Shown piece by piece: positions 22,997 through 63,958 of a DNA stretch of 64,000 nucleotides. The translations under genes were made by a program, and so were the position numbers. The notes under the pieces were generated by a model. The model was not told the origin of the DNA. It was given only the letters and a program-made list of their open reading frames with translations, and searched no databases. How positions within the stretch are numbered: position 1 is the first letter of the stretch; every line of letters starts with the position of its first letter. Source of the DNA: Christensenellales bacterium (GTDB lineage Bacteria > Bacillota > Clostridia > Christensenellales > CAG-138); NCBI GenBank assembly GCA_045114775.1, contig JBGULC010000044.1, positions 68,264-132,263 of the forward strand, in the 5' to 3' direction.

Positions 22997-23282
22997 AGCG
23001 TTTCCTCTCTTGAATGTATACTTATACTTATACCAAGTATAACACGCTTCTTCGCGTTCGGAAAGAGGGAAAATATACATTTTCGCTATTCTTTCAAAGG
23101 AATACCGCTTTCGCGCGTGTATAACGGCTTTTGTTGCGGCAAGGCGGACGGGCAATGCCCGTCCCTACGGGCTAAAACACGACATTCCTTGCCTTCTCCC
23201 CGGGGAGAACGTGCCGTCAGGCGGATGAGTGGGTCAGAATCAGCGATTCTCCGCAGGGAGAATCCTCCCGAACATGCTCGAA

Positions 23283-25395: not shown

Positions 25396-25469
25396 TGGCT
25401 GCCGAACTAGGATTCGAACCTAGACAATACGAGTCAGAGTCGTAGGTGCTACCATTACACAATTCGGCA
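25396..25469 (-). tRNA. tRNA-Gln (anticodon CTG)
   Basis: Hand-folded 74 nt. Acceptor UGCCGAA/UUCGGCA, anticodon loop CUCUGAC, encoded CCA. Confidence 0.85.
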
Positions 25470-25665: not shown

Positions 25666-25742
25666 TGGTGGGGTTAGTTGGGCTCGAACCAATGACCTCC
25701 ACGATGTCAACGTGGCGCTCTAACCAACTGAGCTATAACCCC
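25666..25742 (-). tRNA. tRNA-Val (anticodon GAC)
   Basis: Hand-folded 77 nt. Acceptor GGGGUUA/UAACCCC, anticodon loop UUGACAU, encoded CCA. Confidence 0.9.
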
Positions 25743-36101: not shown

Positions 36102-36140
36102 AGAGACGCCCCGAAAAGGGCGTCTCTGCAAAGCTTTTTT
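36102..36140. terminator. Bidirectional terminator between the lysis cassette and the convergent hydrolase gene
   Basis: AGAGACGCCC-cgaaaa-GGGCGTCTCT with a downstream T-run. Confidence 0.75.
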
Positions 36141-37072: not shown

Positions 37073-40000
37073 TTACCTGTTCATTCTCCAAATGCTCTGC
37101 CGCTCCGCAGGCCGTTTCGCCGGTACGGGCTGCGCTTCTATGCGCCGCGGTCCTCCGCGAAGGAACGCCGGTTCCGGGAGCGAGTCGGGGGGCGGTTCCG
37201 GAGGATTGCCATCCTGCGTGAGGTCGGCAGAATCTGGGGTCGGGTCGGGGGTCTCGTCCTCTTTCGGGGATTCGGCCGGGTCGGTGGTCTCGTCCTCTTT
37301 CGGGGATTCGACCGGGTCGGTGGTCTCGCTTTCTGTCAGAGTTTCGATCTGTTCGGAGATCTCTCCCTCCGTCGGCTGATCGCCGGCACCTCCCTCGTCA
37401 GAGGGAGGTTGAATCGAAGGCACGGTCGAAGTATCTGTCTCGACTACTGCTCCTTCTCCTACCTCTGAGCTCCCCTTGTCAGGGGAGCTGTCAGCTTCTG
37501 CTGACTGAGGGGTAGTTTCGACTGTGACGGTCGTAAACGAAGCCTCCGGGTTCTCCATCTCTGTCGGGGATTCTTCCGGTTCGGGAATCTCTCCCTCCGT
37601 CGGCTGATCGCAGACATCTCCCTCGTCTAAGGGTAGTTGCGTGCTTGCGTCGGATTCCGGGGTCTCTCCCTCCGTCGGCTGGTCGTCGATGACACATCCT
37701 TCGACCGGAGGCTGATCGGTAGCATCCCCATCGGATGATTCGTCGCAGGACGTCGTTTCCGTATTGTCGAGCGTTTCCTGCTCTGCATCGGAATCTTCGG
37801 GCTGCTTCTCCAAGGCCTCTGCAGCCGCGCGTTCCGCCGTCGAATCAAGACGAATGCCGCGCAGCAGGAACGTCGGGATCGGGAACGAGATCGGCACCTC
37901 CTCGATCGGAAACGCTTTGTGTTCCTCTGCCGTCGGCGATTCTGCAGGAGGTTCTTCTTCCGTCAGCGCTTCGACCGGGTCGGGGGGTTCTTCTTCCGTC
38001 AGAGCTTCGATCGGTTCGTGGGACTCTCCTTCCGTCAGGGCTTCGGTCTGTTCTGAGGTCTCTCCCTCCGTCGGCTGTTCGCCGACACCTCCCTCGTCAG
38101 AGGGAGGTTGCGTGCTTGCGTCGGATTCCGGGATTTTTCCCTCCGTCGGCTGTTCGTCGACACCTCCTTCATCAAAGGGAGGTTGAATCGAAGGATCAGT
38201 CGAAGTATCTGTCTCGCGTACTGCTACTTCTCCAACGTCCGAGCGCCCCTTGTCAGGGGAATTGTCAGCTTCTGCTGACTGAGGGGTAGTTCCGTCGGTG
38301 ACGGTCGTAAACGAAGCCTCCGGGTTCTCCCTCTCCGTCGGGGATTCGTCCGGTTCCGGGATCTCTCCCTCCGTCGGCTGATCGCAGATAATACTGTCTT
38401 CAGCAACGGGCTGAACCGCGTCGCTTTCGTCGGCAGCGGGCTGAATTGCGGCGCTTTCTTTGGCAGCAGGCTGAGCCGCGGCGCTCTCGTCAACTATGGT
38501 TTGAACCGCTGTGCTTTCGTCGGCAGCGGGCTGAATTGCGGCGACGCTGTCGGCGAGCGTTTCCGGGACGATTTCCGATTCCGGCATTATTTCTTTGAAC
38601 GAAACTTCCGGTATGGGATCCCTGTCGTGCTTCGCTTCGCCGGCGATTGCGGAGATCGCCGCTGCAGAAGCCGGTATGACAGTCGAGGTAGGCTCGTCAA
38701 AGCCGTTGACGTAATGCAAAAGGGAAACGCCGTCCCGAAGCGTATGCGAAGCCTCGGATCCGTGCGACGAATCGGATCCTTTGAAGGAAGACGGTTCGAC
38801 CGTTTTGCGCAAACCGGATTCCGAAACCGTCCGCACAACAAAGGTTCTTTCCGCGGCAGGCGCCGCGGGTTTTGCCGGTTCATGTTCCGTCTTCGGACGC
38901 GGCATGACCGTTCGCACGACAGCGGGCCGCTCCGAAGATCTCGGTTCGGCGAAACGGGCGCTTTCCGGTTTTGTGGCAACCGGCTCGACAGGCCGTCTGA
39001 ACACGACGGTCTCGTCGCTCGTACGCGCGGCGGGTCTTTCAAATGCGGGTGCTTCCGCCGTCGGTCTGCGGAACTCGCCGGTATTGCCCTTCGGTCTCGG
39101 CGTGACCGGTTCGGCGGGCCGTCTGAACGCTGCGTCTTCCGTCGGACGCGCGGCGGGTCTTTCAAATGCGGCTGCTTCCGCTGTCGGTCTGCGGAATTCG
39201 CCGGTGTTGCCCTTCGGTCTCGGCGTAACAGGTTCGGCGGGACGCCGGAATGTTGCGGTCTCCTCCGCGGATCGCGCCGCGGGTCTTCCCGATTCGGATG
39301 CTTCCGCAGTCGGTCTGCGGAATTCGCCGGTGTTGCCCTTCGGTCTCGGCGTAACAGGTTCAGTACGCCGCGCCGCGGGTCTTGCAAATTCGGATGCTTC
39401 CGCTGTCGGTCTGCGGAATTCGCCGGTATCGCTCTTCGGTCTCGGCGTGACCGGTTCGGCGGGACGTACGTATGCAGCCGTTCCGGGCTTTGCCGTCAGC
39501 ATGATGCGTGTGCCGTCTGCGGTGCGCATTGAATCGGGCTTGGCAGCCGACAGGACGCGTGTGCCGTCGCCGTCGATGCGTACTGATGTATCCTGTGCGG
39601 CAGAACGTGCTGCGGGTCGCGCGCCTTCGCGCCGCATATCCTCGGCAAGGCCTCTTGCGTATAGCTCGCGCCTTGCCTTCGCCTCCTCGTCGGTCAGTTC
39701 GCCGTAGCTTCTGAGCTTGATCGGCTGTCGGTAGCCGAAGCGCTCGGTCGGCGTGTCGTTGAAAAGCGGATCGTCCGGGCGGCGTTTGGTGGCGCGAAGC
39801 GCCTTCTCCATGTCCTCCTCGAACTCGCCCGGCAGCTTGCTTCTGATCTTTCTTTCGAACGCGTAAAGCACGATACACACGATCGCGCAGAACGCCGCGA
39901 CGCCGAGCGTGATCACGGTGATGAGCTTCAGGATCCCGCGATACTTCGCGTCGAGATCCTGCATATAGGGATTGGTGGTAACGACGTAGACCGGATCGGT

Positions 40001-41443
40001 CTTGCGGTCGACCTGATCGCGGAACGGCGTCGTATCGACGGTGACCGTCTGTGAGCTGTGCGTCTGTCCCGCCGGATCCTCTGCGTCGACGCGGAAGCAG
40101 AGCTTGCCGACGCCGTCGATCTGATAGGTCTGCGTAAAATAGGTATCGCCGCGCAAAAGCTCCGGATAGGACACGACCTCATGGAACAGGGTCGTTTCGG
40201 TCAGTACGGCTTTTTTGAGCCTGATGTCGCCGTAATAGCCGATCCGGAACTGGAACGCAACACAGAGCTTGCCGTTGCCGTCGAAGTAAGGCTTCTGCGG
40301 CTCGACGCGCAGCTCGATGCGCACGCCCTCCTGCTCGATATACGGCGTCACGCGGAAGGATTCGGGATCGGTAACGGTAACGGGCTTTAGAAGCGCATCC
40401 GTTCCGGTCGCATGGAAACGCACCGTGCGGATGACGTCCGCGGCGACGCCCGGCTTCACAACATAACGGATCGATTTCGTCTGATTCGCGGGCAGATCGA
40501 AGGGATTGTCGACGAGCGTATTGATCTCATCGTAGACACGGATGTCGGTAACCGTGCGGTTGCCGTTGTTTTTAACGGTGATGATGAACTCGGTCCCCGC
40601 TTCCGTTGCCGGGAACGCCTGTGTGGAGATCGATAGATCCACTGTGACGGAACCGACGCCGATCGCCGTCTCCGCGACCGTCGTGATGTTTCTGCGCCGC
40701 GCAACGTATTCGACCGTCGGGCGGAACGTCATATCCGTCACGCCCATCGTGTAGGTCACGGGCACGACCATCGTCCGTCCCGCGGTAAGCTCGTCGCTTG
40801 TGAGCGGGATCGACTGAAGCCCCTGCTCCGGATCGTAGAGCCGAAGCCCGGTCATATCGAACAGGGTGTCGTTTTTCAGCGTGTATTCGACGGTAAACGA
40901 ATCGCCGACCCGCACGAGCTCGTTCTCGCAGAAGGCGGAAACGGTCAACTCGGGCACGATAAACCGCTCGATCACGATGTTTGCGGAGGTTTCCCTGAAA
41001 TGCGTGATCGTAACGGCTTCGCCGGTCTCGTCGTCGATGAGCGCTTCGCCCGTTTCCTCGTCAAAAGCCGGTTCATGCTCCTCCCAGGAAAGCGTATAGG
41101 TCACGGGAACGTCAAGCTGATCCTCGGCGATGGGGACGTCGGAAAGCGTGAACTCCCGCTTGCCGCCCGCAAGGACCTCGATCTTCTCGTCGAGCGCGCG
41201 TTCGACGTCTTCATAGCCGCCGGAAAGCTTTGCGTTATACAGCGTATAGTCGGATTCGGAATCGTTGAAGATCGTGAAAAGCATGTCCGGCACGGTCCCT
41301 TCGCCCTCAAGTTCGGGCATCGGATCGACCGTGATCGAAAGCGTGATCGGATGCTCGCCCTCGGCAAAGCCGCCCGCGGGGACGATCGATGCCGGGAGCA
41401 GAAGCGCCAATATGCAGATCAGGATGACAATGCGTCGTTTCAT
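37073..41443 (-). CDS. Giant single-pass membrane protein: signal peptide, four Ig-like/CARDB-like modules, TM segment, and an approximately 930-aa disordered repeat-rich tail
   Basis: 1456 aa. Signal peptide MKRRIVILICILALLL, TM segment ILKLITVITLGVAAFCAIVCIVLYAF near residue 500, tail rich in P/E/T/A/R with tandem and segmental repeats. Confidence 0.75.
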   Translation of the reverse strand: MKRRIVILICILALLLPASIVPAGGFAEGEHPITLSITVDPMPELEGEGTVPDMLFTIFNDSESDYTLYNAKLSGGYEDVERALDEKIEVLAGGKREFTLSDVPIAEDQLDVPVTYTLSWEEHEPAFDEETGEALIDDETGEAVTITHFRETSANIVIERFIVPELTVSAFCENELVRVGDSFTVEYTLKNDTLFDMTGLRLYDPEQGLQSIPLTSDELTAGRTMVVPVTYTMGVTDMTFRPTVEYVARRRNITTVAETAIGVGSVTVDLSISTQAFPATEAGTEFIITVKNNGNRTVTDIRVYDEINTLVDNPFDLPANQTKSIRYVVKPGVAADVIRTVRFHATGTDALLKPVTVTDPESFRVTPYIEQEGVRIELRVEPQKPYFDGNGKLCVAFQFRIGYYGDIRLKKAVLTETTLFHEVVSYPELLRGDTYFTQTYQIDGVGKLCFRVDAEDPAGQTHSSQTVTVDTTPFRDQVDRKTDPVYVVTTNPYMQDLDAKYRGILKLITVITLGVAAFCAIVCIVLYAFERKIRSKLPGEFEEDMEKALRATKRRPDDPLFNDTPTERFGYRQPIKLRSYGELTDEEAKARRELYARGLAEDMRREGARPAARSAAQDTSVRIDGDGTRVLSAAKPDSMRTADGTRIMLTAKPGTAAYVRPAEPVTPRPKSDTGEFRRPTAEASEFARPAARRTEPVTPRPKGNTGEFRRPTAEASESGRPAARSAEETATFRRPAEPVTPRPKGNTGEFRRPTAEAAAFERPAARPTEDAAFRRPAEPVTPRPKGNTGEFRRPTAEAPAFERPAARTSDETVVFRRPVEPVATKPESARFAEPRSSERPAVVRTVMPRPKTEHEPAKPAAPAAERTFVVRTVSESGLRKTVEPSSFKGSDSSHGSEASHTLRDGVSLLHYVNGFDEPTSTVIPASAAAISAIAGEAKHDRDPIPEVSFKEIMPESEIVPETLADSVAAIQPAADESTAVQTIVDESAAAQPAAKESAAIQPAADESDAVQPVAEDSIICDQPTEGEIPEPDESPTERENPEASFTTVTDGTTPQSAEADNSPDKGRSDVGEVAVRETDTSTDPSIQPPFDEGGVDEQPTEGKIPESDASTQPPSDEGGVGEQPTEGETSEQTEALTEGESHEPIEALTEEEPPDPVEALTEEEPPAESPTAEEHKAFPIEEVPISFPIPTFLLRGIRLDSTAERAAAEALEKQPEDSDAEQETLDNTETTSCDESSDGDATDQPPVEGCVIDDQPTEGETPESDASTQLPLDEGDVCDQPTEGEIPEPEESPTEMENPEASFTTVTVETTPQSAEADSSPDKGSSEVGEGAVVETDTSTVPSIQPPSDEGGAGDQPTEGEISEQIETLTESETTDPVESPKEDETTDPAESPKEDETPDPTPDSADLTQDGNPPEPPPDSLPEPAFLRGGPRRIEAQPVPAKRPAERQSIWRMNR
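38990..39470. repeat. In-frame tandem repeats within the giant ORF (four units, periods 123/126/96 bp)
   Basis: The core GCTTCCGCNGTCGGTCTGCGGAAYTCGCCGGT recurs at 39051, 39174, 39300 and 39396. It encodes EPVTPRPKxxTGEFRRPTAEA. Confidence 0.9.
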
Positions 41444-52016: not shown

Positions 52017-52045
52017 TTGAATTCGACGCCGGTATCGGTTATAAT
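52017..52045 (+). promoter_or_regulatory. Sigma-A-type promoter of the 11-gene lipid operon
   Basis: TTGAAT-17 nt-TATAAT. Confidence 0.65.
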
Positions 52046-52080
52046 GATAAATCATGATTTCGATTCTGTCGGAGAGTGCA

Positions 52081-54009
52081 ATGACGGATTATCATATCGG
52101 TTCCTATCGCAGCATCGACGCCTTTGTGCGCGACAAGCTCGGCGCCTTCAAAGAGGCCGGGTTTACGTTCCGTTCGCTCTTCGATCTGATGTTCCGCGAA
52201 GGGGACAACGTGCTTTGGGAGCGCAGCGAGGGCTACCGCATCCGCAAAACGACCTACGGCGAAGCGAAGACGCACATTCTGTCCCGCGCAGCCGCGCTGA
52301 AGGACGCGCTGAAGGGACTTCCCCACAATGCGGTCGTCGGGCTGTATCTCGACAACAGCCTCGACTGGATCGAGCTTTTCTGGGCGATCCTCGCCGCAGG
52401 GTTCCGTCCGCTTCTGATGAATCTGCGTCTGCCCGCGCCGCTTCTTTTGAGCGCCATGCGCACGGCGGACTGCCGGGCTGTCGTCGGCGACCGCGGCGAA
52501 TTCTCCTGCCCCGTGCTGCGGCCCGATGCGCTTTCCGTTGACGGCGCGCCGATCGAAGCGCAGCCGTTCGGCTCCGAGCTGCTCGTCATGTCCTCCGGCA
52601 CGACCGAGAACGTCAAGGTCTCGGCGTATTCCGCGGAGGAATTCTACTTCCAGATCTGCGACAGCTACGGCATCATCCGGGAGCAGCCGATGATCAAGCA
52701 GCACTACGAGGGCAATCTGAAGCTTCTGACGTTCCTGCCGTTTTACCACGTGTTCGGGCTGATCGCGATGTATATCTGGTTCGCGTTCTTCTCGCGCACG
52801 TTCGTGCAGCTCAACGATCTTGCGCCGTCGACGATCGTGAACACGGTCCGCCGCCACAAGGTCACGCACATCTTCGCCGTTCCGCTCTTCTGGGAGCGCG
52901 TATACGAACAGGCGAAAAAAGGGATCGCCGACCGGGGCGAAAAGACCGCGGCGAAGTTCGAACGCGCGCTTGCGCTTCAGCAAAAGCTGCCCGCGGCGCT
53001 CGGACGGGCGTTTGCGAAGGCGGCGTTTCGCGAGGTGCGCGAGAATCTGTTCGGCGAATCCGTGCTGTTCATGATCTCGGGCGGCAGCTTTCTGGATCCC
53101 GACGCGCACGCGTTTTTCAACGGGATCGGCTACCCGCTCGCGAACGGCTACGGCATGACCGAGATCGGCATCACCTCGGTCGAGCTTTCGTTCCAAAAGA
53201 AATACCTGCGATCCGGCAGCGTCGGAAAGCCGATGCACAGCGTCGAATACCGGATCAACGCGGACGGCGAGCTTGAGGTCAAGGGACTCGTCACCGCAAA
53301 ATACATCCTGACCGCGGACGGCATGACCGGGCGGCACGGCTGGTTCAACACGCACGATCTCGCTGCCTGCATCGACGGGCATTACCGGATCCTCGGCCGG
53401 ACGGACGATCTGATCGTCGGACCGGACGGCGAAAACCTGAACCCGAACGCGATCGAACCGCTCCTGAAAACCGACGGCGCCGAGGTCTGCCTGATCCCCT
53501 GCAGCGACGGCGGAAAGCCCGCGACCGTGCTGCTGTGCGGCGTGAACCGCATGACGACGAAGGAGACCGCGGAGCGCATCCTCGCTTCGCTCAGGGAACG
53601 GATCGAAGGTCTGCGTCTCTCCCCCGCGATCTCAAAGATCGCGCTCGTCGAGGGTCCGCTGATGAAGGCCGACGAATTCAAGCTGAACCGCATCCGGCTC
53701 CGGCGCGACTACGCCTCCGGCGCGCTGAAGCCGCTCGATCTTTCCCGGGAGCACGGGGACGAAGCGCTTGACGCGCTGACGGCGCGGGTCCGCGCGATCG
53801 TGGCGCAGGCGACGAACCGCGACGAAACGGAGATCGCGCCCGACGCCGATTTCTTCCTCGATCTCGGAGGCACGAGCCTCGACTGGTTCGCCATGCTGAC
53901 GCGTCTGCGCGACGAGTTCGGCGCTGCGTTCCCGCTCGAGGAAACGAACCTCAAAACCGTGCGGAGCATCGTCGGATACATCCGCGCGGAGAAAGGCGGT
54001 TCGCTTTGA
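52081..54009 (+). CDS. Fatty-acyl-AMP ligase / adenylation enzyme fused to a C-terminal carrier-protein (PP-binding) domain
   Basis: AMP-binding motifs SSGTTENVK and GWFNTHDL..GRTDD. C-terminal DLGGTSLDWF phosphopantetheine-site motif. The start is either 52081 (GGAGAG RBS) or 52054 (near-leaderless). Confidence 0.8.
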   Translation: MTDYHIGSYRSIDAFVRDKLGAFKEAGFTFRSLFDLMFREGDNVLWERSEGYRIRKTTYGEAKTHILSRAAALKDALKGLPHNAVVGLYLDNSLDWIELFWAILAAGFRPLLMNLRLPAPLLLSAMRTADCRAVVGDRGEFSCPVLRPDALSVDGAPIEAQPFGSELLVMSSGTTENVKVSAYSAEEFYFQICDSYGIIREQPMIKQHYEGNLKLLTFLPFYHVFGLIAMYIWFAFFSRTFVQLNDLAPSTIVNTVRRHKVTHIFAVPLFWERVYEQAKKGIADRGEKTAAKFERALALQQKLPAALGRAFAKAAFREVRENLFGESVLFMISGGSFLDPDAHAFFNGIGYPLANGYGMTEIGITSVELSFQKKYLRSGSVGKPMHSVEYRINADGELEVKGLVTAKYILTADGMTGRHGWFNTHDLAACIDGHYRILGRTDDLIVGPDGENLNPNAIEPLLKTDGAEVCLIPCSDGGKPATVLLCGVNRMTTKETAERILASLRERIEGLRLSPAISKIALVEGPLMKADEFKLNRIRLRRDYASGALKPLDLSREHGDEALDALTARVRAIVAQATNRDETEIAPDADFFLDLGGTSLDWFAMLTRLRDEFGAAFPLEETNLKTVRSIVGYIRAEKGGSL

Positions 54010-54647
54010 TCGCCGCGTTCAACTGGTTTGTGAAGATCACAGGCTGGCCGGTGCAGCTGCTGTGCTTCCGCACGAAGATCCTCTATGAGGACAAACGCGC
54101 GCAGGTGCGGCATATCAAGGGGCCCGCGATCGTCATTTCGAACCACACGTCGGTCTTTGACTACGCGGTGTACCTGTTCGTGTTTTTCAGCCGGACGCTG
54201 CGCTTTCAGATGGCCGAACTGCTGTTCGAAAAGCCCGGGCTCGGGCTGCTTCTGAAATGTCTCGGCGGGATCCGCGTCGACCGCGGCGCGCACGATTTCG
54301 GCTTTATGCCGAAGTCCGAACGGATCCTCGAACGCGGCGGCGTGGTCGGGATCTTCCCGGAAAGCCGCCTGCCGCTGCCCGGCGAGACGCGTCCGCTGCC
54401 CTTTAAGGTGAGCGCGGCGTATCTGGCGCTTACAAGCGGCGCGAAGATCGTTCCGGTCGTGACGAACGGCTCGTATTTCAGCCGGAAGCGCGCACGCGTG
54501 TTGATCGGCAAACCGCTGTACGCCGCCGATCTTCTGGAGGACGGCGCGGACGAGAACGAAAACCTCAGGATCGTTTCCGAACGGCTGAGAGAACGCATCA
54601 TGGAATTGGAGAAGCTGCTCAATGGAACAGAAACCGAAACGCGCTAA
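54006..54647 (+). CDS. Lysophospholipid/glycerolipid acyltransferase (PlsC/LPLAT family), copy 1
   Basis: HX4D motif NHTSVFD and FPESR block. TTG start overlapping the upstream stop (TTGA). Confidence 0.8.
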   Translation: MIAAFNWFVKITGWPVQLLCFRTKILYEDKRAQVRHIKGPAIVISNHTSVFDYAVYLFVFFSRTLRFQMAELLFEKPGLGLLLKCLGGIRVDRGAHDFGFMPKSERILERGGVVGIFPESRLPLPGETRPLPFKVSAAYLALTSGAKIVPVVTNGSYFSRKRARVLIGKPLYAADLLEDGADENENLRIVSERLRERIMELEKLLNGTETETR

Positions 54648-55278
54648 GCTGTTTTCGCTGCGATACCTCGTCTTCGACTTCGTCAAGGCGTCCGCGGCGA
54701 TCCCCGGCATGGTCTGGCTGAGGCCGCGCTGGCGGTTCGAGTCGAAGGCCGCGCGGAAGTTCATCCGCGGCGGCGCGCTCGTCATCGCGAATCACGCCGG
54801 ATTTTTCGATCCGATCAACGTGATGTTCGCGATCTGGTACCGGCGGCACCACTTCGTCTGCGGGCAGGAGTTCTTCGAATCGAAGGCCCGCTGGTGGTTC
54901 AAGCAGTTCATGTGCATCCCGATCGACCGGAAGAACTTCAATTTCGGCTCGCTCCGGGAGATCACCGACGAGCTCAAGGCGGGCTCACTCGTGTCCATCT
55001 TTCCGGAGGGGCACATCAACGACGGCAGCGGCGACCTTGCGGCGTTCAAGTCCGGTCCGGTGTTGATCGCACTGCAGGGCAAGGTCCCGATCATTCCGGT
55101 TTACGTGCGGCCCAAAAAGCGCTTCTGGAACCGCGTGACCTTCGTGATCGGCGAGCCGATCGACCTCTATCAGCGGTACGGCAGACGCCCGCCGATGTCC
55201 GAGATCGACGCGATCGCCGACGAGCTGCATCAAAAGGAAGAAGAATTAAAGCAAATCGCTTATCAAAAGAGGAGATAA
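54622..55278 (+). CDS. Lysophospholipid/glycerolipid acyltransferase (PlsC/LPLAT family), copy 2
   Basis: HX4D motif NHAGFFD and FPEGH block. 26-nt overlap with copy 1. Confidence 0.8.
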   Translation: MEQKPKRAKLFSLRYLVFDFVKASAAIPGMVWLRPRWRFESKAARKFIRGGALVIANHAGFFDPINVMFAIWYRRHHFVCGQEFFESKARWWFKQFMCIPIDRKNFNFGSLREITDELKAGSLVSIFPEGHINDGSGDLAAFKSGPVLIALQGKVPIIPVYVRPKKRFWNRVTFVIGEPIDLYQRYGRRPPMSEIDAIADELHQKEEELKQIAYQKRR

Positions 55279-55282
55279 CACT

Positions 55283-56797
55283 ATGCTGACACCATCCAAA
55301 GAGATCTTCCGTAAGTACACGGACGAACAGACCTTCGAACGCATCAAAGAGTTCACGACCGTTTCCGCAATGTGGGAACACTGCATTGCCGAATATGCCG
55401 ACGCGCCCGCGATCGTGGACGAGGGTAAGGCGCACACCTTTGCGGAGCTCGACGCAGACGTCGCTGGATTCCGCGCGCTTTTGGGCGACAGTCCGATCGG
55501 CACGCGCGTCGCGCTGTTTGCGGCGAATTCCTACGACTTCGTGAAGGCGTATCTCGCGGCTGTGACCTCGGGATATACCTGCGCGATCTTCCCGGCGCAT
55601 CTTCCGGCGGAAGCCGTGTTCGGCTGCTGCATGATGTTCGGGATCAAAAAGCTCATCTATCAGGCGGACTTCGAGGAGCGTCTCGCGATCGTCAAGGCAA
55701 AGCGCCCGGACATCGCGCTGATCCGCGCGGACGCGCTTTCCGACGAGAAGAAGCCGATCGTCTCCTGCGAGCCGAAGACGCCCTGCGCGATCGTCTTTAC
55801 GGGCGGCACGACCGGCAAGAGCAAGGGCGCGCTTCTTTCGAACGACGCGGTCATGCAGGGCACGATCAACGGCTGCTACGGCTACCCCGACGTGTTCGGT
55901 CAGCGCTACCTGCTCGTGCTGCCGCTTTCGCACGTGTTCGGGCTCATCCGAAACCTGATGACCTCGCTCTACACCGGCAGTGCGCTGTATATCTGCCGCA
56001 ACAATAATGATATGTTCCGCGACGTCGCGATCTTCAAGCCGACGATCCTCGTCATCGTGCCCGCACTCGCCGAAATGGCGCTGACGCTCTCGAAGAAGTT
56101 CGGCCGCAACATGCTCGGCGCGGACCTCAAGACGATCATCTGCGGCGCGGCGCCGGTGTCGCCGTATCTCATCACGGAATACGACAAGCTCGGCATCAAG
56201 CTGCTGCCCGGTTACGGTCTCACCGAGTCCGCGAACCTCGTTTCCGGCAACCCGGAAAGCCTCCGGAAGAGCGATTCCGTCGGCGTTCCGTTCCCGAATC
56301 AGGAGTTTAAGATCGTCGACGGCGAGCTTTGGCTCAAAGGCCGCAACATGATGGAAGGCTACGTCGGCGTCGAAGAGCCCGGCGCATATGAGGACGGATG
56401 GTTCAAGACCGGCGACCTCGTCCGCATCGACGACGAGGGCTACCTCTACATCACCGGACGCATCAAGGAGATCATCGTGCTCCCGAACGGCGAGAACGTC
56501 TCCCCAGCGGAGGTCGAGGTGCATTTCAACGCGCTCCCGTTCATTCAGGATTCGCAGGTCTTCGAAAGCCGCAGCGCGCTCGGCGAGCCGATCCTCGCGC
56601 TCGAGGTCGTGCTGCGTCCGACCGAGCTCACAAACATGGACGACGAAGCGCGTAAGGCGTTCGCCGTTTCCGAGCTTGAAAAGGTCAACCGCACGCTGCC
56701 CGGCTTCATGCAGGTCAGCCGGATCGAAGTCCGCGACACCGACTTCCAGCGTTCCCCGGCGATGAAGATCGTGAGGTATAAGAATGTCCAGAACTGA
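55283..56797 (+). CDS. Long-chain fatty acid-CoA/ACP ligase (AMP-binding family)
   Basis: FTGGTTGKSKG, YGLTE and GWFKTGDL..GRIKE motifs. 504 aa. Confidence 0.85.
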   Translation: MLTPSKEIFRKYTDEQTFERIKEFTTVSAMWEHCIAEYADAPAIVDEGKAHTFAELDADVAGFRALLGDSPIGTRVALFAANSYDFVKAYLAAVTSGYTCAIFPAHLPAEAVFGCCMMFGIKKLIYQADFEERLAIVKAKRPDIALIRADALSDEKKPIVSCEPKTPCAIVFTGGTTGKSKGALLSNDAVMQGTINGCYGYPDVFGQRYLLVLPLSHVFGLIRNLMTSLYTGSALYICRNNNDMFRDVAIFKPTILVIVPALAEMALTLSKKFGRNMLGADLKTIICGAAPVSPYLITEYDKLGIKLLPGYGLTESANLVSGNPESLRKSDSVGVPFPNQEFKIVDGELWLKGRNMMEGYVGVEEPGAYEDGWFKTGDLVRIDDEGYLYITGRIKEIIVLPNGENVSPAEVEVHFNALPFIQDSQVFESRSALGEPILALEVVLRPTELTNMDDEARKAFAVSELEKVNRTLPGFMQVSRIEVRDTDFQRSPAMKIVRYKNVQN

Positions 56798-57035
56798 GAT
56801 CATCGACAAGCTCAAGGAGATCCTTCTTGCGGCGGACGACCGCAACCGCGACAAGGTGCTCGCCTGCACCGAGGGCTCGAAGCTCGTCGCCGACCTCGGC
56901 TTCTCGTCGGTCTCCATGCTCTATATGGTCATCGCGATCGAGGAGGAGATGGGCATCCGCTTCGACAACGTCGGCGCGTCCGATTTTGAAACACTCGGCG
57001 ACGTCGTGACCTATATCGAGGCGAAGCTCAAATGA
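56784..57035 (+). CDS. Stand-alone acyl carrier protein
   Basis: 83 aa. DLGFSSVSMLYMV serine-site helix. Overlaps both neighbouring genes. Confidence 0.75.
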   Translation: MSRTEIIDKLKEILLAADDRNRDKVLACTEGSKLVADLGFSSVSMLYMVIAIEEEMGIRFDNVGASDFETLGDVVTYIEAKLK

Positions 57036-58072
57036 AATGGCAGCCCGGCGAGCCGGTCCCCGGCGATATGGTGCGGGTGCAGATCGGTTCGATCTTCCAT
57101 TACGGGATCTATACGGGCGACGATCGGATCGTTGCGTTCGGTCTGCCGCCCGTGTCGGAGCATGCAAATGCGCCGGACCGGTTTCTGGTAACGGAAACGG
57201 ACATGGACGTGTTCTGCACCGGACGCATCCCGGAGATCGCGGTCCTCGACCGCGCGGAGCGCAGAAAGCGCATCCCGCCGGAGGAAACCGTGCGGCTTGC
57301 AAAAAGCAGGCTCGGCGAAGACGGGTATCATCTGATCCGCAACAACTGCGAGCACTTCGTGAACGAGTGCGTGTTCGGCGAGAAGAAGAGCCTCCAGGAG
57401 GAGGCGATGTTCCGGATGTGGAACACAAGGCCGGTCATCAACGTCTACCTTTCCGAGGCCGACCGGTTCACGCTTGACTTCCCCGTCCCCGCGGAGCGGC
57501 GCTCGGAGATCGACGCCTGCTCCGATGCTTCGATGAAGCGCGCGCGGATCGCAAACTGGGCGCTGCTGCGGCTTGCCGCGCGGCACGGTTTTTCGCTCGA
57601 TCCGGACGAGGTCGTCTTTTCGCGCAAAAAGCACGGCGGCTGGACCGCGGACCGTTTTTTCTGTTCGTTTTCACACGCCGACGGGCTCTGCTGCGTCGCG
57701 GTCTCGAACGCGCCGATCGGCGTCGACTTTGAAACGGTCGAGGATTTTTCACGCAGGCTCGACGCGCAGAAGCTTCAAAAGCTTCGCGCGCAGTGCTTCA
57801 CCAAGGCCGAACGGGACGCGTACCCGGATTCGATCGAAAGCTTTCTCATCTGCTGGACGCGGAAGGAAGCGATCTTCAAGCAGACCGGAAAGCGCGCGTT
57901 CTCGCCCGGCGCGATCGAAACGCGCACCGGCGCTGCCATGACGTACAGACTCGACGAACCGAAGCGGGCGGTCCTCTCCCTTTGCGGGGAGTACGCCGGT
58001 CTTGCGCGGTTTTACCGGACGGACGGAAACGAGATCACGCCCCTTTGGGCGGAAGGACCTTTGGACCTGTAG
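57032..58072 (+). CDS. Fusion protein: LRAT/PLAAT (NlpC/P60-type Cys-His acyltransferase) domain plus Sfp-type 4'-phosphopantetheinyl transferase domain
   Basis: N-terminus carries HYGIY and NNCEHFVNEC (LRAT hallmark). C-terminus carries FSFSHAD, GVDFE and WTRKEAIFK (PPTase motifs). Confidence 0.75.
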   Translation: MKWQPGEPVPGDMVRVQIGSIFHYGIYTGDDRIVAFGLPPVSEHANAPDRFLVTETDMDVFCTGRIPEIAVLDRAERRKRIPPEETVRLAKSRLGEDGYHLIRNNCEHFVNECVFGEKKSLQEEAMFRMWNTRPVINVYLSEADRFTLDFPVPAERRSEIDACSDASMKRARIANWALLRLAARHGFSLDPDEVVFSRKKHGGWTADRFFCSFSHADGLCCVAVSNAPIGVDFETVEDFSRRLDAQKLQKLRAQCFTKAERDAYPDSIESFLICWTRKEAIFKQTGKRAFSPGAIETRTGAAMTYRLDEPKRAVLSLCGEYAGLARFYRTDGNEITPLWAEGPLDL

Positions 58073-58081
58073 GAGGACGGT

Positions 58082-59020
58082 ATGCTTTGGATCCCGGCAG
58101 CTTTGATCGGATGCTACGCGGTTTTCGTGATCGGACCCGCGATCGCTGCCGTCTGCACGATCTTCAAGGCATTGCCCGGCTCTCCGCTCGAACGAATGCT
58201 CGAACCGGACGCGCAGCTTTACCCGTTCCGCGAACGCATCCTTGCGGCGAAGCGCGCGCTCGACGCGCTGCCGGACGCGAACGTCACGGTCACGGCGCGG
58301 GACGGGATCGCGCTGTCGGGACGGTATTACGATCTCGGCAAGCCGAAAACGGCGATCTTTGTGCACGGATACCGCACGCAGCCGGAGGTCAACTTCACCG
58401 AACAGGCGGAGGCGTTCGCCCGGCACGGCTACAATCTGCTTCTGATCCGTCAGCGCGGACACGAGCCCGGCTCGCACGTTCGGTGCGGCATGGGACTCAG
58501 AGAGCGGTACGACGCCGCGGCGTGGAACGATTGGGCGCTCTCGCAAAACGGCGTCGAAGAAACCGTGCTGTACGGTGTTTCGATGGGCGCAGCGACGGTC
58601 GGGTTTGCGGCTTCTCTGGTCGATCCGGCGCGCACAAAAGCGCTGTTTCTCGACTGCGGCTTTCGCTCGCCGTATGAGCAGATCTCGCTCGACTGCAGGC
58701 GGCATCACATTTCGCCGTTTGTGCTGATGCCTTGGATCCGGCTGTTCGCGCGGATCTTTCTGAAGCTCGACATCCGCGAACGCACGGACGACGCGCTGCG
58801 GCGCACCGCGATCCCCTGCTTCTTCCTGCACGGAACGGAGGACAGGACCGTACCGTATGAGACCGGCCGCGCGGTCTATGAAGCCTGCGGCGCACGAAAG
58901 GCGTTTTTCACCGCGCGCGGCGCAAGACACGCAGAATCGTATCTTTCCGACCCCGACCGGGCGGAAGACGAGATATTTACGTTCCTCGGGGAGGAACACA
59001 CAGAAGGAAACCAACTTTAG
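58082..59020 (+). CDS. Membrane-anchored alpha/beta hydrolase (paralog 2)
   Basis: N-terminal TM segment, GVSMGA nucleophile elbow, C-terminal HG.ED and H blocks. Confidence 0.8.
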   Translation: MLWIPAALIGCYAVFVIGPAIAAVCTIFKALPGSPLERMLEPDAQLYPFRERILAAKRALDALPDANVTVTARDGIALSGRYYDLGKPKTAIFVHGYRTQPEVNFTEQAEAFARHGYNLLLIRQRGHEPGSHVRCGMGLRERYDAAAWNDWALSQNGVEETVLYGVSMGAATVGFAASLVDPARTKALFLDCGFRSPYEQISLDCRRHHISPFVLMPWIRLFARIFLKLDIRERTDDALRRTAIPCFFLHGTEDRTVPYETGRAVYEACGARKAFFTARGARHAESYLSDPDRAEDEIFTFLGEEHTEGNQL

Positions 59021-59034
59021 GAGGACAACTGAAA

Positions 59035-59969
59035 TGGCAAAATTTGTGATCCTTTGCGACGGTACCTGCGATCTGCAGGAGAACTTTCAGAAGGAATACG
59101 ACATCCGGGTCATCCCGGGACACATCGTGCTGCCCGACAAGTCGGACGTGCCCGGCCCGCTGAAGTGGGACCGCTTCTCGCGCGATGAGTTTTATGCCGA
59201 TCTCAAGAAGAATCCGAACGGCTACGCAACCGCGCCCGCCAATACCGAGGAGTTCCGCCGCGCGATGGAAGAGATCGTGAAGGACGGCACGCCGCTGCTC
59301 GTTCTGACCATCTCCGCCGGCATGAGCGGAACCTACGACTTTGCCTGCACCGCAGCGAAAACGGTGAAGGAAACCTATCCCGACGCGGATATCCGCTGCA
59401 TCGACACGCTGCGCTTCGGTCCCGGCTTCGGCCTGATGGCGGTGCACGCTTCCATGCTGCGCGAAGAAGGCAAGACGATGGAAGAGGTCGCGGCATGGCT
59501 CGAGGAGAATAAAAACCGGTTCCATCAGGCGGGCTGGCTCGACGACCTGAGCTTCGTCGCAAAGAAGGGTCGTCTGACCAACGCGAAGGCGTTCTTCGGC
59601 ACGCTCGCGGGCATCAAGCCGATCGGCGAGTTCGACTACAACGGCATGACGACCGTCATCGGCAAGGCGAAGGGCGCAAAGGCCGCCTACGCCGCGCTGC
59701 TCGAATACGTCGAAAAGACCGGCGAGGATCTTTCCGAACAGATCCTGTTCATCGCCCAGACCAACCGCATGGCGCAGGCCGAGAAGTACAAGGAGCTTCT
59801 TGCGGAGCGTTTCCATCCGAAGGCGATCTATATCAACGACGTCTTCCCCTCCTGCGGCATCAACGTCGGCCCGGGTCTCATGGCGGTCTACTACATGGGC
59901 AAGCCGATCTCCAAGGACCTCTCCGAAGAACGCGCGATCATTGAAAAAGCGCTTGCAAACGCAAAATAA
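59035..59969 (+). CDS. DegV/FakB-family fatty-acid-binding protein
   Basis: MAKFVILCDGTCDL N-terminus and TISAGMSGTY block typical of DegV. 311 aa. Confidence 0.85.
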
Positions 59970-60000: not shown

Positions 60001-61341
60001 ATGAGAAAACTGACAAAAAAATGGCAGATGTTCCTGTACGCCATCGGCGGCATGGGCGTCAACATGCTGAACCTGATGGTCAGCTCGTACCTGTGCAGCG
60101 CGATCATCGCGAGCGGGTTCAATCCGAACGTCATTCAGTACCAGACTTTCCTTCAGCGCGACCTCGTCATTGCAGGGGTATGGGCAGTGTTCGGCGTTGT
60201 TGCGAAGATCATCGACGGCGTGATCGACGTCCCGATGGCGTCGTTTACGGATAATCTGAAGACGAAGTTCGGTCGCAGACGTCCGGCGCTCATCATCGGT
60301 CTCGTGCCGATGATTCTCGCCTACGTGCTGTTCTCGCTCGTCACGCCCAATCCGGACGGCGCGACGCTCGGAAACACGATCTACTACGGCATCACGCTGT
60401 GCGTGTTCTACAGCTTCTATACGCTGACAATGGTCACGTACTACGCGACCTTCACGGAGATCGTCGACTGTCAGGAGGACCGCAACTTCATGTCGAACGT
60501 CAAGTCGGTCTGCGACATCCTCTACTTCATCCTGGGGTACGTCGTGGTCCGCATGTTCCTGAACGGTTTGAACATCCGTTTCGTCGCCATGCTGGTGCTG
60601 CCGATCGTTCTGACGATGATGATCCCGCTGTTCCTGATCCGGGAAAGCTCGACCAAGGACGGCGTCATCCTTCGCGATGGCGATGAGAAATCCGTTTCGG
60701 TCAATCTGTTCAAGTCGATCGCGTATACGTTCAAGAACAAGAATTATATTCTTTGGATGATCGTGTATTCGTTCATGACCTTCGGCGTGCAGCTCTTCCT
60801 GTCCGGTATCAACGAGTATTTCTCAGTCGCCGGCATGAACATGATGCTCGTCATGATGGCGTCGTTTGCACCGGTGCCGTTCACGCTGCTGATCTACAAC
60901 TGGCTGACGCGGAAGTTCGGCTTCGGCTTCTCTTACCGCTATACGCTCGTGATCTTTGCCGTCGGCATGGCGGCGATGTTTGCGGTTTCGTTCCTCCCCG
61001 CGGGAACGCCGAAAACCGTACTTTCGATCGTAACGGGTCTCATCTCCTCGTTCGGCATCGGCGCAATGTTCTCCGTTGCGTATTCCGTGCCGTCCGAGCT
61101 TGCCGCCGAAGAGGAAAAGCGCACCGGCGTCTCGAACGCCGCAATGTACTTTGCGGTGCAGGGACTTTTCGCGGGCGTCGCGTCCGGCATCGGCGGACAG
61201 GCGGTTCTGACGTGGATGAAAACGGCCGACGTCGTAAAGTACATGACGCTCGTCTGCGCGATCGCTGTGCTCGCCGCGTTCCTGCTGTCCTTTATGCTGC
61301 CGAAGTCCGTTACCTTGATGGGCAAGAAGGAATCGAAGTAA
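60001..61341 (+). CDS. MFS transporter, MFS_2/GPH family (MelB/Mfsd2a/LplT-like)
   Basis: 12 TM segments. DGVIDVPMASFTDNLKTKFGRRRP loop signature. Confidence 0.8.
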   Translation: MRKLTKKWQMFLYAIGGMGVNMLNLMVSSYLCSAIIASGFNPNVIQYQTFLQRDLVIAGVWAVFGVVAKIIDGVIDVPMASFTDNLKTKFGRRRPALIIGLVPMILAYVLFSLVTPNPDGATLGNTIYYGITLCVFYSFYTLTMVTYYATFTEIVDCQEDRNFMSNVKSVCDILYFILGYVVVRMFLNGLNIRFVAMLVLPIVLTMMIPLFLIRESSTKDGVILRDGDEKSVSVNLFKSIAYTFKNKNYILWMIVYSFMTFGVQLFLSGINEYFSVAGMNMMLVMMASFAPVPFTLLIYNWLTRKFGFGFSYRYTLVIFAVGMAAMFAVSFLPAGTPKTVLSIVTGLISSFGIGAMFSVAYSVPSELAAEEEKRTGVSNAAMYFAVQGLFAGVASGIGGQAVLTWMKTADVVKYMTLVCAIAVLAAFLLSFMLPKSVTLMGKKESK

Positions 61342-61345
61342 ACCG

Positions 61346-62986
61346 ATGGCAGTCAAACGAATCAACGGAACCGAATTAGAACAGATGCTCAGAAACGGGC
61401 TCGTCAATCTTCGCGCGGAAGAGGACGAGATCAACCGTCTGAACGTCTTCCCCGTCCCCGACGGCGACACGGGCACCAACATGGTGAAAACGCTGGAGCA
61501 CGGGCTGAATCAATCCGAAAGCAGCGCGGAAGTCAACGTCTTCGTGAAATCGCTCGCCTCCGGAATGCTCCTCGGCGCGCGCGGAAACTCGGGCGTCATC
61601 CTCTCGCAGTTTTTCAACGGCTTTGCGCAGGGTCTTTCCCGTTCCGTTCTGATCGGTCCGGGCGAGCTTCGAAACGCGCTCGTGCGCGGGTATCGCGTCG
61701 CGTATTCCGCCGTGCAGAAGCCGGTCGAGGGAACGATCCTCTCCGTTGCACGCGAGGGCATCGAGCACATCCGCGGACAGATCACCCGCACCTCCACGAT
61801 CGACTTTATCCTCTCTGCGTACGTCGCCGAAATGCACAAGACGCTGATTTTGACGCCGGAAATGCTTCCGGTGCTGAAGGACGCGGGCGTCGTCGATTCC
61901 GGCGCGACCGGCTTTATCCGCATCTTTGAGGGGATGATCAAGTATCTGCGCGGCGAGATCCTGGAGGATCTTGCACCGAAAGCGGAGCCCGAAAAAGCGC
62001 CTAAAGCGGACCTCAGTCTGTTCAACGAAAACAGCCTGTTTATCGACGGCTACTGCACGGAATTCATCCTGCAGCTGATGAACGGCGCGTCCTACGATCA
62101 GGATTTCCGGCTGAAAGCCTTCATCGGCGCGCTCGACCGTCTCGGCGACTCGCTGGTCTGCGTACAGGACGGCAAACGCGTCAAGGTGCATATTCACACG
62201 AAAGCGCCCGCGTTCGTCATTCAGCTCGCGCAGCAGTACGGCGAGTTTCTGACCTTCAAGCTCGAGAACATGCAGGTCCAGCACAACGAGCGCGACCGCA
62301 TCCTGAAGCCGCGGGTGCATAAGCCTCTGTCCGTCGTGGCTGTCGTCAACGGCGCGGGCATGAAAACGCTGTTCGAGAACCTCGGCGCAGATTGTGTGAT
62401 CGACGGGACCGCGACCATGAACACCTCTTCGCAGGAGTTCGTGTCCACCTTCGAATCGCTCGACGCCGACCGCATCGTCGTGCTGCCGAACAACAAGAAC
62501 GTCATCCTGGCAGCCGAGCAGGCTGCGAAGCTCGTTTCGGATAAAAACGTGACCGTTCTGCCCTCGAAGAGCTTTGTCGAGGGATATTACGCGATCGCGA
62601 TGGACGTGCCGACCGAACCGGATCTCATGAAGCGGATCGAGAGCATGCGCTCCGGCATCGAAAACGTCGTCACGCTCAGCGAAACGACCGCATCGCGCGA
62701 TTACGCGTACCACGAGATCCGCTGTAAGAAAGGCGAAGAGATCGCCTTCCTGTCCGGCGAGCTTGTCTGCGTCAACAGCGATTACAAGGACGCGATCTTA
62801 GGCGCGCTTTCGATGATCGAGGACATCGACGACCGCGAGACCGGCATTGTGCTGCGCGGCAAGGGCGTCTCGGCGGACGACGAGGAAGCGCTTTCGGAGG
62901 CGGTGTCCGAGCGGTATCCGATGCTCGAGCTCGAGTTTATCGACGCCGGGCAGGAGATCTACCACTGGGTCGTCGGCATCATGTGA
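61346..62986 (+). CDS. fakA: DAK2-domain protein, fatty acid kinase FakA/YloV family
   Basis: N-terminal DhaL motif PDGDTGTNM. 546 aa with a DegV-like C-terminal half. Confidence 0.75.
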   Translation: MAVKRINGTELEQMLRNGLVNLRAEEDEINRLNVFPVPDGDTGTNMVKTLEHGLNQSESSAEVNVFVKSLASGMLLGARGNSGVILSQFFNGFAQGLSRSVLIGPGELRNALVRGYRVAYSAVQKPVEGTILSVAREGIEHIRGQITRTSTIDFILSAYVAEMHKTLILTPEMLPVLKDAGVVDSGATGFIRIFEGMIKYLRGEILEDLAPKAEPEKAPKADLSLFNENSLFIDGYCTEFILQLMNGASYDQDFRLKAFIGALDRLGDSLVCVQDGKRVKVHIHTKAPAFVIQLAQQYGEFLTFKLENMQVQHNERDRILKPRVHKPLSVVAVVNGAGMKTLFENLGADCVIDGTATMNTSSQEFVSTFESLDADRIVVLPNNKNVILAAEQAAKLVSDKNVTVLPSKSFVEGYYAIAMDVPTEPDLMKRIESMRSGIENVVTLSETTASRDYAYHEIRCKKGEEIAFLSGELVCVNSDYKDAILGALSMIEDIDDRETGIVLRGKGVSADDEEALSEAVSERYPMLELEFIDAGQEIYHWVVGIM

Positions 62987-62995
62987 GGTAACGGT

Positions 62996-63958
62996 ATGCT
63001 TTGGTTATGGATCGTACTCGGCGTGCTCGGCTTCGCCCTGCTTTCCGGGATCATTATGACGCTGATCATTGCGTGGATCATTTACGCCACGCTCTTAAGG
63101 CGCAATAGGCCCGGCAAATGGGACCGCGGCATCAGCTTTCCGGAGGACGAAGAATACTGCCGGATGCACGACATCGGCATTGCGTGGGGCGAGAAGTATC
63201 GCGATCGCATCCGCGAGGTCACGGTCACGAGCGACGGGCTGAAGCTTGTCGGCGAATACTTCGATTTCGGCGGGAAGTCCGCTGCGCTGATCATTGCGGG
63301 ACGCACGGAATGCCTGCTGTATTCCTATTTCTTCGCCGAACCGTTCCGCCGCGCGGGACGCAACGTTCTTGTGATCGACAACCGCGCGCACGGTCTTTCC
63401 GAAGGTAAGGTGAGCTGTCTGGGGTATCGCGAATACCGCGATATCCTCGAATGGTGCAGGCTCTTGCACGACGATCTCGGCAACGAACGCGTGTTTTTGC
63501 ACGGGATCTGCATCGGCTCCTCCACCGCGCTCTTTGCGCTGACCGCGCCGGAGTGTCCCGACTACATCGAAGGCATGTCCTGCGAGGGCATGTACATGAC
63601 CTTCTATCGGTCGTTCGACAGGCACATGGACCTCGACCGACCCGAGAAGAAAAAGTTCCCGGTCGTACAGGAGGTCATGCTGTGGATCCGGCTTTGCTCG
63701 CATGCGAACGTCGTGACCGACGGGCCTTATAAGCGCATTGAGAAGCTCAGAAAGCCCATTCTGTTCCTCCACAGCCGCGAGGATCCCTATTCCACTCCGG
63801 ACCAGGCGGAATACCTCTACGCGCACTGCAGCGCGCCGAAAAAACTCGCGTGGTTCCCGCACGGCGCGCATTCGCGCATCCGCATCAACGATATGGCGAA
63901 TTACGACGATGCGATCGTCGGATTTCTGCATGAGCTTGACAAAAAAGCCGAGGAGTAA
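62996..63958 (+). CDS. Membrane-anchored alpha/beta hydrolase (paralog 3) with Cys at the nucleophile elbow
   Basis: N-terminal TM segment. The elbow reads GICIGS (GxCxG) instead of GxSxG. Shares the MLW start and RBS context with paralog 2. Confidence 0.75.
   Translation: MLWLWIVLGVLGFALLSGIIMTLIIAWIIYATLLRRNRPGKWDRGISFPEDEEYCRMHDIGIAWGEKYRDRIREVTVTSDGLKLVGEYFDFGGKSAALIIAGRTECLLYSYFFAEPFRRAGRNVLVIDNRAHGLSEGKVSCLGYREYRDILEWCRLLHDDLGNERVFLHGICIGSSTALFALTAPECPDYIEGMSCEGMYMTFYRSFDRHMDLDRPEKKKFPVVQEVMLWIRLCSHANVVTDGPYKRIEKLRKPILFLHSREDPYSTPDQAEYLYAHCSAPKKLAWFPHGAHSRIRINDMANYDDAIVGFLHELDKKAEE

Follow-up and report, generated by a model that had tools for sequence, protein, structure and literature searches.

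An LRAT/PLAAT-type domain fused to an Sfp-type phosphopantetheinyl transferase in a carrier-protein operon of Clostridia

Why would a phospholipid-remodelling fold be joined to the enzyme that arms carrier proteins? To our knowledge, LRAT/PLAAT enzymes have been found almost only in animals and viruses, where they remodel phospholipids. The question is raised by a stretch of 64,000 nucleotides from a Christensenellales bacterium (Bacillota; Clostridia; GenBank assembly GCA_045114775.1, contig JBGULC010000044.1, positions 68,264 to 132,263 of the forward strand), hereafter the window, whose first letter is position 1. A single open reading frame (ORF) of this window, gene F (57032..58072 on the plus strand, stop codon included), starts with ATG and encodes a 346-residue protein that combines an LRAT/PLAAT-type domain with an Sfp-type phosphopantetheinyl transferase (PPTase) domain, and it adjoins a gene for an acyl carrier protein (ACP). 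An earlier note, made from the letters alone, had proposed this pair of domains and suggested that acyl chains are handed between phospholipids and the adjacent ACP.

Two domains in one open reading frame

The N-terminal domain (aa 1–125, 57032..57406 (+)) was delimited from Pfam, an alignment with PLAAT3, residue conservation and Foldseek. The LRAT profile PF04970 matched aa 8–118 with 64.1 bits (cutoff 24.3, E 1.8e-17) and was covered from position 3 to position 119 of 120, while a sequence search of the PDB matched PLAAT3, PLAAT2 and PLAAT4 over aa 6–122, PLAAT3 being the best (E 2e-7). In an AlphaFold2 (AF2) model built with 71 homologues (mean predicted local distance difference test score, pLDDT, 92.3; predicted TM-score, pTM, 0.71), Foldseek recognised the circularly permuted papain-like fold of the family: the N-terminal third aligned with PLAAT2, PLAAT3 and PLAAT4 over 113–120 columns, with target TM-scores of 0.72–0.81 (4dpz, 4dot, 4fa0, 7zom, 7zot). 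As in PLAAT/HRASLS and LRAT, which are permuted NlpC/P60 thiol enzymes and to which identity is 22–26%, the histidine box lies on strand 2 and NCEHF places the nucleophilic cysteine at the N-terminus of a helix. The histidine box is HYGIY (aa 23–27, 57098–57112 (+), with His23 at 57098–57100) and the cysteine box is NCEHF, within NNCEHF (aa 105–109, 57344–57358 (+), with Cys106 at 57347–57349); His23 and Cys106 pair with H23 and C113 of PLAAT3. His23, N104-N105-C106-E107-H108-F109 and C113 are invariant in alignments of 28 and of 71 sequences, at identities down to 34%.

The third residue of the catalytic triad departs from the family pattern. This residue is His35 in PLAAT3 and Asn in PLAAT1 (PMC8154263), and the CHH or CHN triad is a hallmark of the family (PMC8154263, PMC10318531). 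The gene F product has Ala35 at this position and hence lacks the CHH hallmark. We examined the position in 80 related loci, kept from the 394 stretches of a one-genome-per-species collection that encode a relative, and found Gln in 43, Ala in 25 and Glu in 5. The LRAT half is thus a PF04970 member by profile and fold, and from its sequence it is a divergent subfamily with a predicted Cys–His dyad or Cys–His–Gln/Glu triad. One might read the alanine, shared by the window and 25 of the 80 loci, as a sign that the LRAT half of this clade has lost catalytic strength or serves regulation and that the protein is essentially the PPTase of its operon. We consider this very improbable: His23, NNCEHF and many further LRAT-half residues are invariant, the Ala35 clade included, and decay in the family affects the PPTase half, not the LRAT half.

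A further difference concerns the membrane. Most PLAATs possess a membrane anchor (PMC8154263). In the gene F product, the place of the C-terminal transmembrane anchor of PLAAT1–4 and LRAT is taken by the PPTase domain, and hydropathy predicts a soluble protein, devoid of any transmembrane-like segment (maximum over 19 residues, 1.16, versus 2.3–2.7 for the products of genes G, K and I of the same operon). Unlike its characterised relatives, it is also bacterial and encoded in an ACP-centred operon. A role as an NlpC/P60-type peptidoglycan hydrolase was ruled out, as the protein contains neither a signal peptide nor a transmembrane segment and matches the LRAT profile, not NLPC_P60.

A linker helix (aa 121–132, 57392..57427 (+)), in which W130 is nearly invariant and which contains the lowest-confidence block of the AF2 model (aa 121–130), leads to the second domain (aa ~133–346, 57428..58069 (+)), an Sfp-type (group II) PPTase according to Pfam, an alignment with Sfp, Foldseek and conservation. 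The ACPS profile PF01648 matched aa 228–302 with 36.7 bits (cutoff 25) and the PDB sequence search matched Sfp over aa 173–289 (E ~1e-3). In the structural search the C-terminal two-thirds of the model aligned with Sfp (4mrt) over 221 columns (E 1e-9, target TM-score 0.61) and also with AASDHPPT, PcpS and PptT, revealing the two-half, pseudo-symmetric architecture of ~220 residues typical of these enzymes. The motifs are SFSH (aa 212–215, in the context FFCSFSHADG), GVDFE (aa 230–234, 57719–57733 (+)) and WTRKEAIFK (aa 275–283, 57854–57880 (+)). Within them, S214/H215, D232/E234 and W275/E279/K283 correspond to S89/H90, D107/E109 and W147/E151/K155 of Sfp (1qr0/4mrt), which we take, from established knowledge of Sfp, to be the Mg2+/CoA ligands and the catalytic base. 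Among 71 full-length homologues, G230, D232 and K283 are invariant and H215, E234, W275, K278 and E279 are at least 90% conserved.

The key residues are therefore those of Sfp-type PPTases (Sfp, AASDHPPT, PptT, PcpS), and the gene adjoins its presumed carrier substrates as well; by contrast, identity to these enzymes is only 13–19%, the gene F product carries an N-terminal LRAT domain, and the catalytic half is decayed in one clade of the gene F family. TIGR00556 scored under its cutoff (34.2 versus 45.35 bits) and the NCBIfam equivalogs were all far below theirs (AusB 28/225, AcpT 23/174, HetI 19/370 and EntD 16/169 bits). As judged from sequence and model, the PPTase half is nonetheless a complete Sfp-type fold in which the equivalents of Sfp H90, D107, E109, E151 and K155 are intact, and gene F encodes two real domains, each with an intact predicted active site. 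The coordinates and domain calls of the earlier note were thus borne out by both Pfam matches, above their cutoffs in one ORF, and the structure prediction that it had proposed as a check returned the PLAAT and Sfp folds. Its motifs HYGIY, NCEHF, GVDFE and WTRKEAIFK are present as written, but its FSFSHAD must be corrected to CSFSHAD.

The fusion is widespread. Relatives of gene F are encoded in 394 species-level genomes of the one-genome-per-species collection, and the titles of the 80 kept loci refer almost all to uncultured gut or rumen Clostridia (Oscillospiraceae, Ruminococcus, Christensenellaceae, Lachnospiraceae, Acutalibacteraceae, Saccharofermentans, Mageeibacillus and Butyrivibrio crossotus are among the taxa). 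Of the candidates scored in a protein collection clustered at 90%, 166 were relatives at E<=1e-3, with ~65 clusters of ~345 aa carrying both PF04970 and PF01648, the architecture that the earlier note had suggested looking for; their source assemblies come from ENA, JGI, NCBI and Logan. An exhaustive phmmer search of 1.84 billion 50%-representatives gave 127 matches at E<=1e-30, nearly all of 320–355 aa and aligned in a single full-length stretch, and both halves were found in all of 70 aligned full-length homologues (34–87% identity). One apparent PPTase-only relative (P0262) was rejected, being a fusion truncated by the end of its contig.

The joining of two genes by a frameshift, which the earlier note had named as the finding that would undo its reading, and any other assembly or sequencing artefact are for all practical purposes ruled out: the frame is continuous, the length of ~345 aa is uniform in more than 100 divergent clusters, the assemblies are independent and nothing speaks in favour of an artefact. 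The third-position G+C content of gene F (GC3 0.81) is at the level of its neighbours. The same note had called the fusion unusual, which holds in that Foldseek found no solved PDB chain spanning both halves of the model and our literature search found no publication on an LRAT–PPTase fusion, but the fusion is not rare. Database entries, where they are named at all, bear the automatic label 'lecithin retinol acyltransferase family protein' or 'phosphopantetheinyl transferase' and nothing more specific. In the literature that could be searched we found no characterisation of the fusion, of its carrier-protein context or of its conserved operon; the constituent families are known.

The operon around gene F

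Gene F lies within a series of eleven plus-strand genes, A to K, with intergenic spacings of −26 to +31 nt. Immediately upstream, gene E (56784..57035 (+)) encodes a stand-alone acidic ACP (83 aa, isoelectric point 4.5) with a predicted attachment site, Ser42, in DLGFSSV (nt 56898–56912 region (+)); it matched NCBIfam ACP models below their cutoffs and the Pfam PP-binding profile with 20 bits. In 61 of 75 loci the stop codon of gene E overlaps the start codon of gene F (ATGA, −4); the motif of the ACP is conserved as DLG(L/F)SSV. A second predicted PPTase substrate is provided by gene A (52054..54009 (+)), identified by Pfam/NCBIfam and motif as an AMP-binding adenylating enzyme with a C-terminal carrier domain (aa 578–643; Ser608 in GGTSL, 53866–53880 (+)). 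Gene F is co-transcribed, and probably co-translated, with these carrier-protein genes of a lipid-acyl operon.

The remaining genes are consistent with this description. Genes B (54006..54647 (+)) and C (54622..55278 (+)) encode two PlsC-family acyltransferases, with the HX4D motif at aa 47–52 (Pfam PF01553) and aa 58–63, respectively. The best NCBIfam matches of gene B are 1-acylglycerol-3-phosphate O-acyltransferase and the acyl-ACP--phospholipid O-acyltransferase (Aas) domain, the Aas acyltransferase domain being the first or second NCBIfam match of both genes. Gene D (55283..56797 (+)) encodes a stand-alone adenylating enzyme resembling fatty-acid CoA/ACP ligases, for which the PDB sequence search returned generic acyl/aryl-CoA ligases only. 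Downstream of gene F come gene G (58082..59020 (+)), an alpha/beta hydrolase (Hydrolase_4) with an N-terminal transmembrane helix and a GVSMG nucleophile elbow, matched in the PDB only by generic esterases and haloperoxidases; gene H (59034..59969 (+)), a DegV/FakB-type fatty-acid-binding protein; gene I (60001..61341 (+)), an MFS_2 (GPH-type) transporter that had no match in the PDB sequence search; gene J (61346..62986 (+)), the catalytic FakA/YloV subunit of fatty acid kinase, with all three FakA Pfam domains and 496.6 bits against TIGR03599 YloV (cutoff 396); and gene K (62996..63958 (+)), another alpha/beta hydrolase with an N-terminal transmembrane helix.

The nucleophile elbow of gene K, GICIG (aa 171–175), carries a cysteine instead of a serine, and G(I/V)CIG is found in 55 of 56 orthologues from the related loci, whereas its sister gene G has a normal GxSxG; gene K is therefore a second candidate thiol acyl-enzyme in the operon. 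In some loci gene K is followed by at least one small ORF and a third Hydrolase_4-type hydrolase of ~307–336 aa (L086:11432-12442, L089:16100-17104, L087:13573-14496). One of these loci is on a contig whose gene K product is that of the window, which places the third hydrolase just past the window end.

When every ORF of the 80 related loci was compared with the eleven proteins of the window, practically all loci of sufficient length had the order A-B-C-D-E-F-G-H-I-J-K, at 34–83% identity, and independent gene calls with precomputed Pfam hits support the same order. Seven loci of a second type (L043, L051, L055, L063, L065, L066, L073) contain only A, I, B, C, D, E and F, with the MFS_2 gene between A and B; genes G, H, J and K were not detected after gene F in these loci, except for a distant DegV gene in L043. 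This seven-gene set is the core of the operon. The MFS_2 protein of this locus type (e.g. L066:5029-6942) has ~630 residues (614–678), ~200 more than that of the window, with a C-terminal extension that has no Pfam match. In reduced loci, D is missing (L034, L041), or both D and E (L030), or C together with D and E (L080); A, B and F are retained throughout. Wherever the upstream flank of a locus variant is covered, gene A is found, so that there at least one carrier domain is kept alongside gene F.

Gene F itself varies in its PPTase half. In a Ruminococcus clade its slot is occupied by a protein of ~282 aa that has lost GxDxE and WxxKE by internal deletion. The AF2 model of this short form is interpretable in its C-terminal half only, since the alignment was shallow (83% identical) and the LRAT half remained below a pLDDT of 50; aa 131–280 were above 90, and Foldseek still matched them to PPTases over ~115–124 columns, indicating a half-PPTase remnant. 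Such a dead but confidently folded remnant fits a non-catalytic docking role. In one locus (L082) a 138-aa LRAT-only gene sits between the ACP gene and hydrolase G. By gene content, then, the LRAT half is the constant component and the PPTase half a helper that can be lost. Among the stand-alone PPTase relatives examined, the nearest (212 aa, L083:2623-7696) lies between an MBOAT + DHHW/ALGX pair and a DegV gene; the pair is a DltB/DltD-like O-acylation couple.

Upstream of the operon, a search of Rfam found no riboswitch or leader, and a promoter/terminator scan of the operon region gave site counts not above shuffled expectation. A promoter-like TTGAAT-17-TATAAT (52017–52045 (+), 10/12 matches), which we give as a lead only, ends 8 nt before the annotated ATG of gene A, a position that suggests either that the transcript has a short leader or none, or that the true start of gene A lies further on.

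Substrates of the LRAT half

What links the two halves? For the PPTase half, homology and the intact catalytic residues predict with high confidence that both carriers of the operon are armed: CoA would donate its 4'-phosphopantetheine to Ser42 of gene E and to the GGTSL serine of the gene A carrier domain. A carrier protein as the shared partner of both halves is indicated by the PPTase fusion, by the ATGA overlap that couples gene F to the ACP gene and by the retention of a dead PPTase remnant. Gene F may then be a soluble cytoplasmic two-domain enzyme that services the carriers of its own operon, and this is the best explanation of the whole, which we hold tentatively, at a little short of an even chance. 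The LRAT half would form a fatty-acyl thioester at Cys106, assisted by His23, and would load acyl chains on the phosphopantetheine thiol of the E and A carriers or take them off it. Its second substrate would be water, for editing or release, or else an ester of a glycerolipid or lysolipid, for transacylation. In the acyl-thioester at Cys106 and its exchange with carrier thiols, taken by themselves, we have moderate confidence. The PPTase half would be a helper replaceable in trans and the LRAT half indispensable.

Action on carriers is supported by the absence from gene F of the membrane anchor that most PLAATs possess. Thioester donors are chemically easy for Cys–His enzymes. A precedent for acyl-carrier exchange is BtrH, a papain-like cysteine enzyme that uses an acyl-ACP donor (PMC10318531), but which belongs to another papain-like family than the LRAT half of gene F. 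The division of labour would also recall the type II thioesterase and PPTase pairs of non-ribosomal peptide and polyketide synthases, in which one enzyme arms the carrier and another hydrolyses or transfers the cargo of the arm, as gene F is presumed to do with acyl-ACP; type II thioesterases, however, belong to the alpha/beta hydrolases and are proteins separate from the PPTase. The acyl hand-off between phospholipid and adjacent ACP put forward in the earlier note, which partly overlaps our explanation, fits the ATGA coupling and the acyl-lipid operon and is plausible, if unproven.

The same LRAT half could act in a more conventional way, as a cytosolic phospholipase A, lysophospholipase or transacylase that uses glycerolipid esters only and never carriers, releasing free fatty acid or making a diacyl lipid from two lysolipids; the fusion would then merely secure co-expression. 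Its closest characterised relatives are indeed the phospholipases PLAAT2, PLAAT3 and PLAAT4, with an identical NCEHF motif, and PLAAT4 truncated of its anchor is still active on short-chain phosphatidylcholine (PMC8154263). Freed fatty acids could be re-activated by FakA/FakB and the two adenylating enzymes, and LRAT-only and PPTase-dead forms occupy the same locus. Against this stand the soluble, anchorless nature of the protein, the presence in the locus of G and K as dedicated hydrolases, and three features that point to a carrier protein: the fused PPTase, the translational link with the ACP gene and the dead remnant that has been kept. We regard a phospholipase-only function as possible but doubtful.

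Several points weigh against carrier servicing as well. We know of no LRAT-family member that acts on acyl-ACP, the characterised members acting on phospholipid O-esters. The alanine at the third triad position leaves the clade of the window with a Cys–His dyad only. The two PlsC acyltransferases and the two or three alpha/beta hydrolases of the operon could themselves carry out acyl transfer and hydrolysis. The pTM of the gene F model, together with the low-confidence linker, is no proof of a fixed geometry between the domains. Nor is the physical fusion obligatory for LRAT function, given the PPTase-dead Ruminococcus clade, the LRAT-only L082 and the loci without a stand-alone ACP; the L082 protein is devoid of any docking domain.

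At the level of the pathway, the operon probably salvages fatty acids and lysolipids. The MFS transporter and the membrane-anchored hydrolases would bring lipid pieces in, the two adenylating enzymes would charge the two carriers with fatty acids, and the two PlsC-type acyltransferases would place the acyl chains on glycerolipid acceptors. Such an operon would be an enlarged, split version of a lysophospholipid re-acylation system, joined to FakA/FakB. The comparison is with LplT/Aas of Gram-negative bacteria, a transporter coupled to acyl-ACP-dependent re-acylation (PMC11416262), for which our literature search found no Gram-positive counterpart. Both have an MFS transporter, a PlsC-type acyltransferase, an AMP-forming acyl ligase and an ACP carrier. 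The Clostridia operon differs in being split and duplicated, with two ligases, two acyltransferases and two dedicated carriers; in its transporter, which is of the MFS_2/GPH type, has no demonstrated similarity to LplT and lies in or beside the core in most loci; and in the addition of the LRAT–PPTase protein, FakA/FakB and two or three membrane-anchored alpha/beta hydrolases.

Alternatively, instead of remodelling bulk phospholipid, the operon might make a specialised acylated product, for instance an acylated glycolipid or an N- or O-acyl lipid, with the LRAT domain as a terminal, BtrH-like acyltransferase from acyl-ACP to an acceptor other than a glycerophospholipid. This would agree with the divergent, dedicated carriers that accompany the two adenylation enzymes, with an ACP score short of every housekeeping cutoff and with the possession of its own PPTase, typical of secondary-metabolite-like pathways; the MFS_2/GPH-type transporter hints at a glycoside-like substrate, and PLAATs are also N-acyltransferases, according to work listed in PMC8154263. 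But the operon includes FakA/YloV and FakB of the housekeeping type, Pfam and NCBIfam revealed no condensation, ketosynthase, glycosyltransferase or amino-acid-activating signature in the locus, and synteny over many families of Clostridia fits core lipid metabolism better. A specialised product is accordingly quite improbable.

Within lipid salvage, a more specific form can be envisaged, a hitherto unrecognised ATP-sparing route in gut and rumen Clostridia, although we think it rather improbable. The PLAAT-like enzyme would strip imported lysolipids and pass the acyl chain via Cys106 to a dedicated ACP armed by its own PPTase. The lysolipids may be lysophospholipids, or plant lyso-galactolipids entering through the GPH-type MFS protein, and the acyl-ACP may feed the PlsC-type acyltransferases. 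If true, bacteria would have an ACP-based equivalent of the Lands cycle of eukaryotes and of CoA-independent transacylation.

Gene F thus represents a bacterial LRAT subfamily tied to ACPs by fusion, translational coupling and strict synteny, in an operon of 7–11 genes that can include FakA/FakB of the cell. Should its thiol domain indeed exchange acyl groups with a carrier, this would widen the chemistry of LRAT/PLAAT enzymes and would also define the way in which dietary or host lipids are taken up and re-used by many uncultured Clostridia of gut and rumen, with a bearing on fatty-acid auxotrophy, resistance to type II fatty-acid synthesis (FASII) inhibitors and rumen lipid metabolism.

Other features of the window

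Outside the operon the window contains housekeeping genes; no FASII, acpS or plsX gene was found there or in the flanks of the related loci. A Gut-1 RNA motif (RF01706, 23284–23362 (-), 59.5 bits versus a gathering score of 50) occupies the 5' leader position of a xanthine-dehydrogenase-like operon on the minus strand (MoCoBD, 20687–23155; FAD_binding_5, 19796–20683; 2Fe-2S, 19305–19796). On the other side of this motif, and apart from the operon of gene F, lies a gene for a TMEM164-family membrane protein (23420–24199 (-), PF14808, E 1e-28), which may be another lipid-related enzyme. A 6S RNA gene (RF00013, 25479–25660 (-), 60.9 bits) is located directly between tRNA-Gln (25396–25469) and tRNA-Val (25666–25742).

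Two large ORFs, 37073–41443 (-) (1455 aa) and 31185–32768 (-) (526 aa), have a coding-like GC3 and no significant Pfam match, only sub-threshold ones to DUF7507 and PARP-repeat. Between them are encoded an NlpC/P60 protein (34961–35689 (+)) and a Hydrolase_4/Peptidase_S9 hydrolase (36139–37068 (-)).

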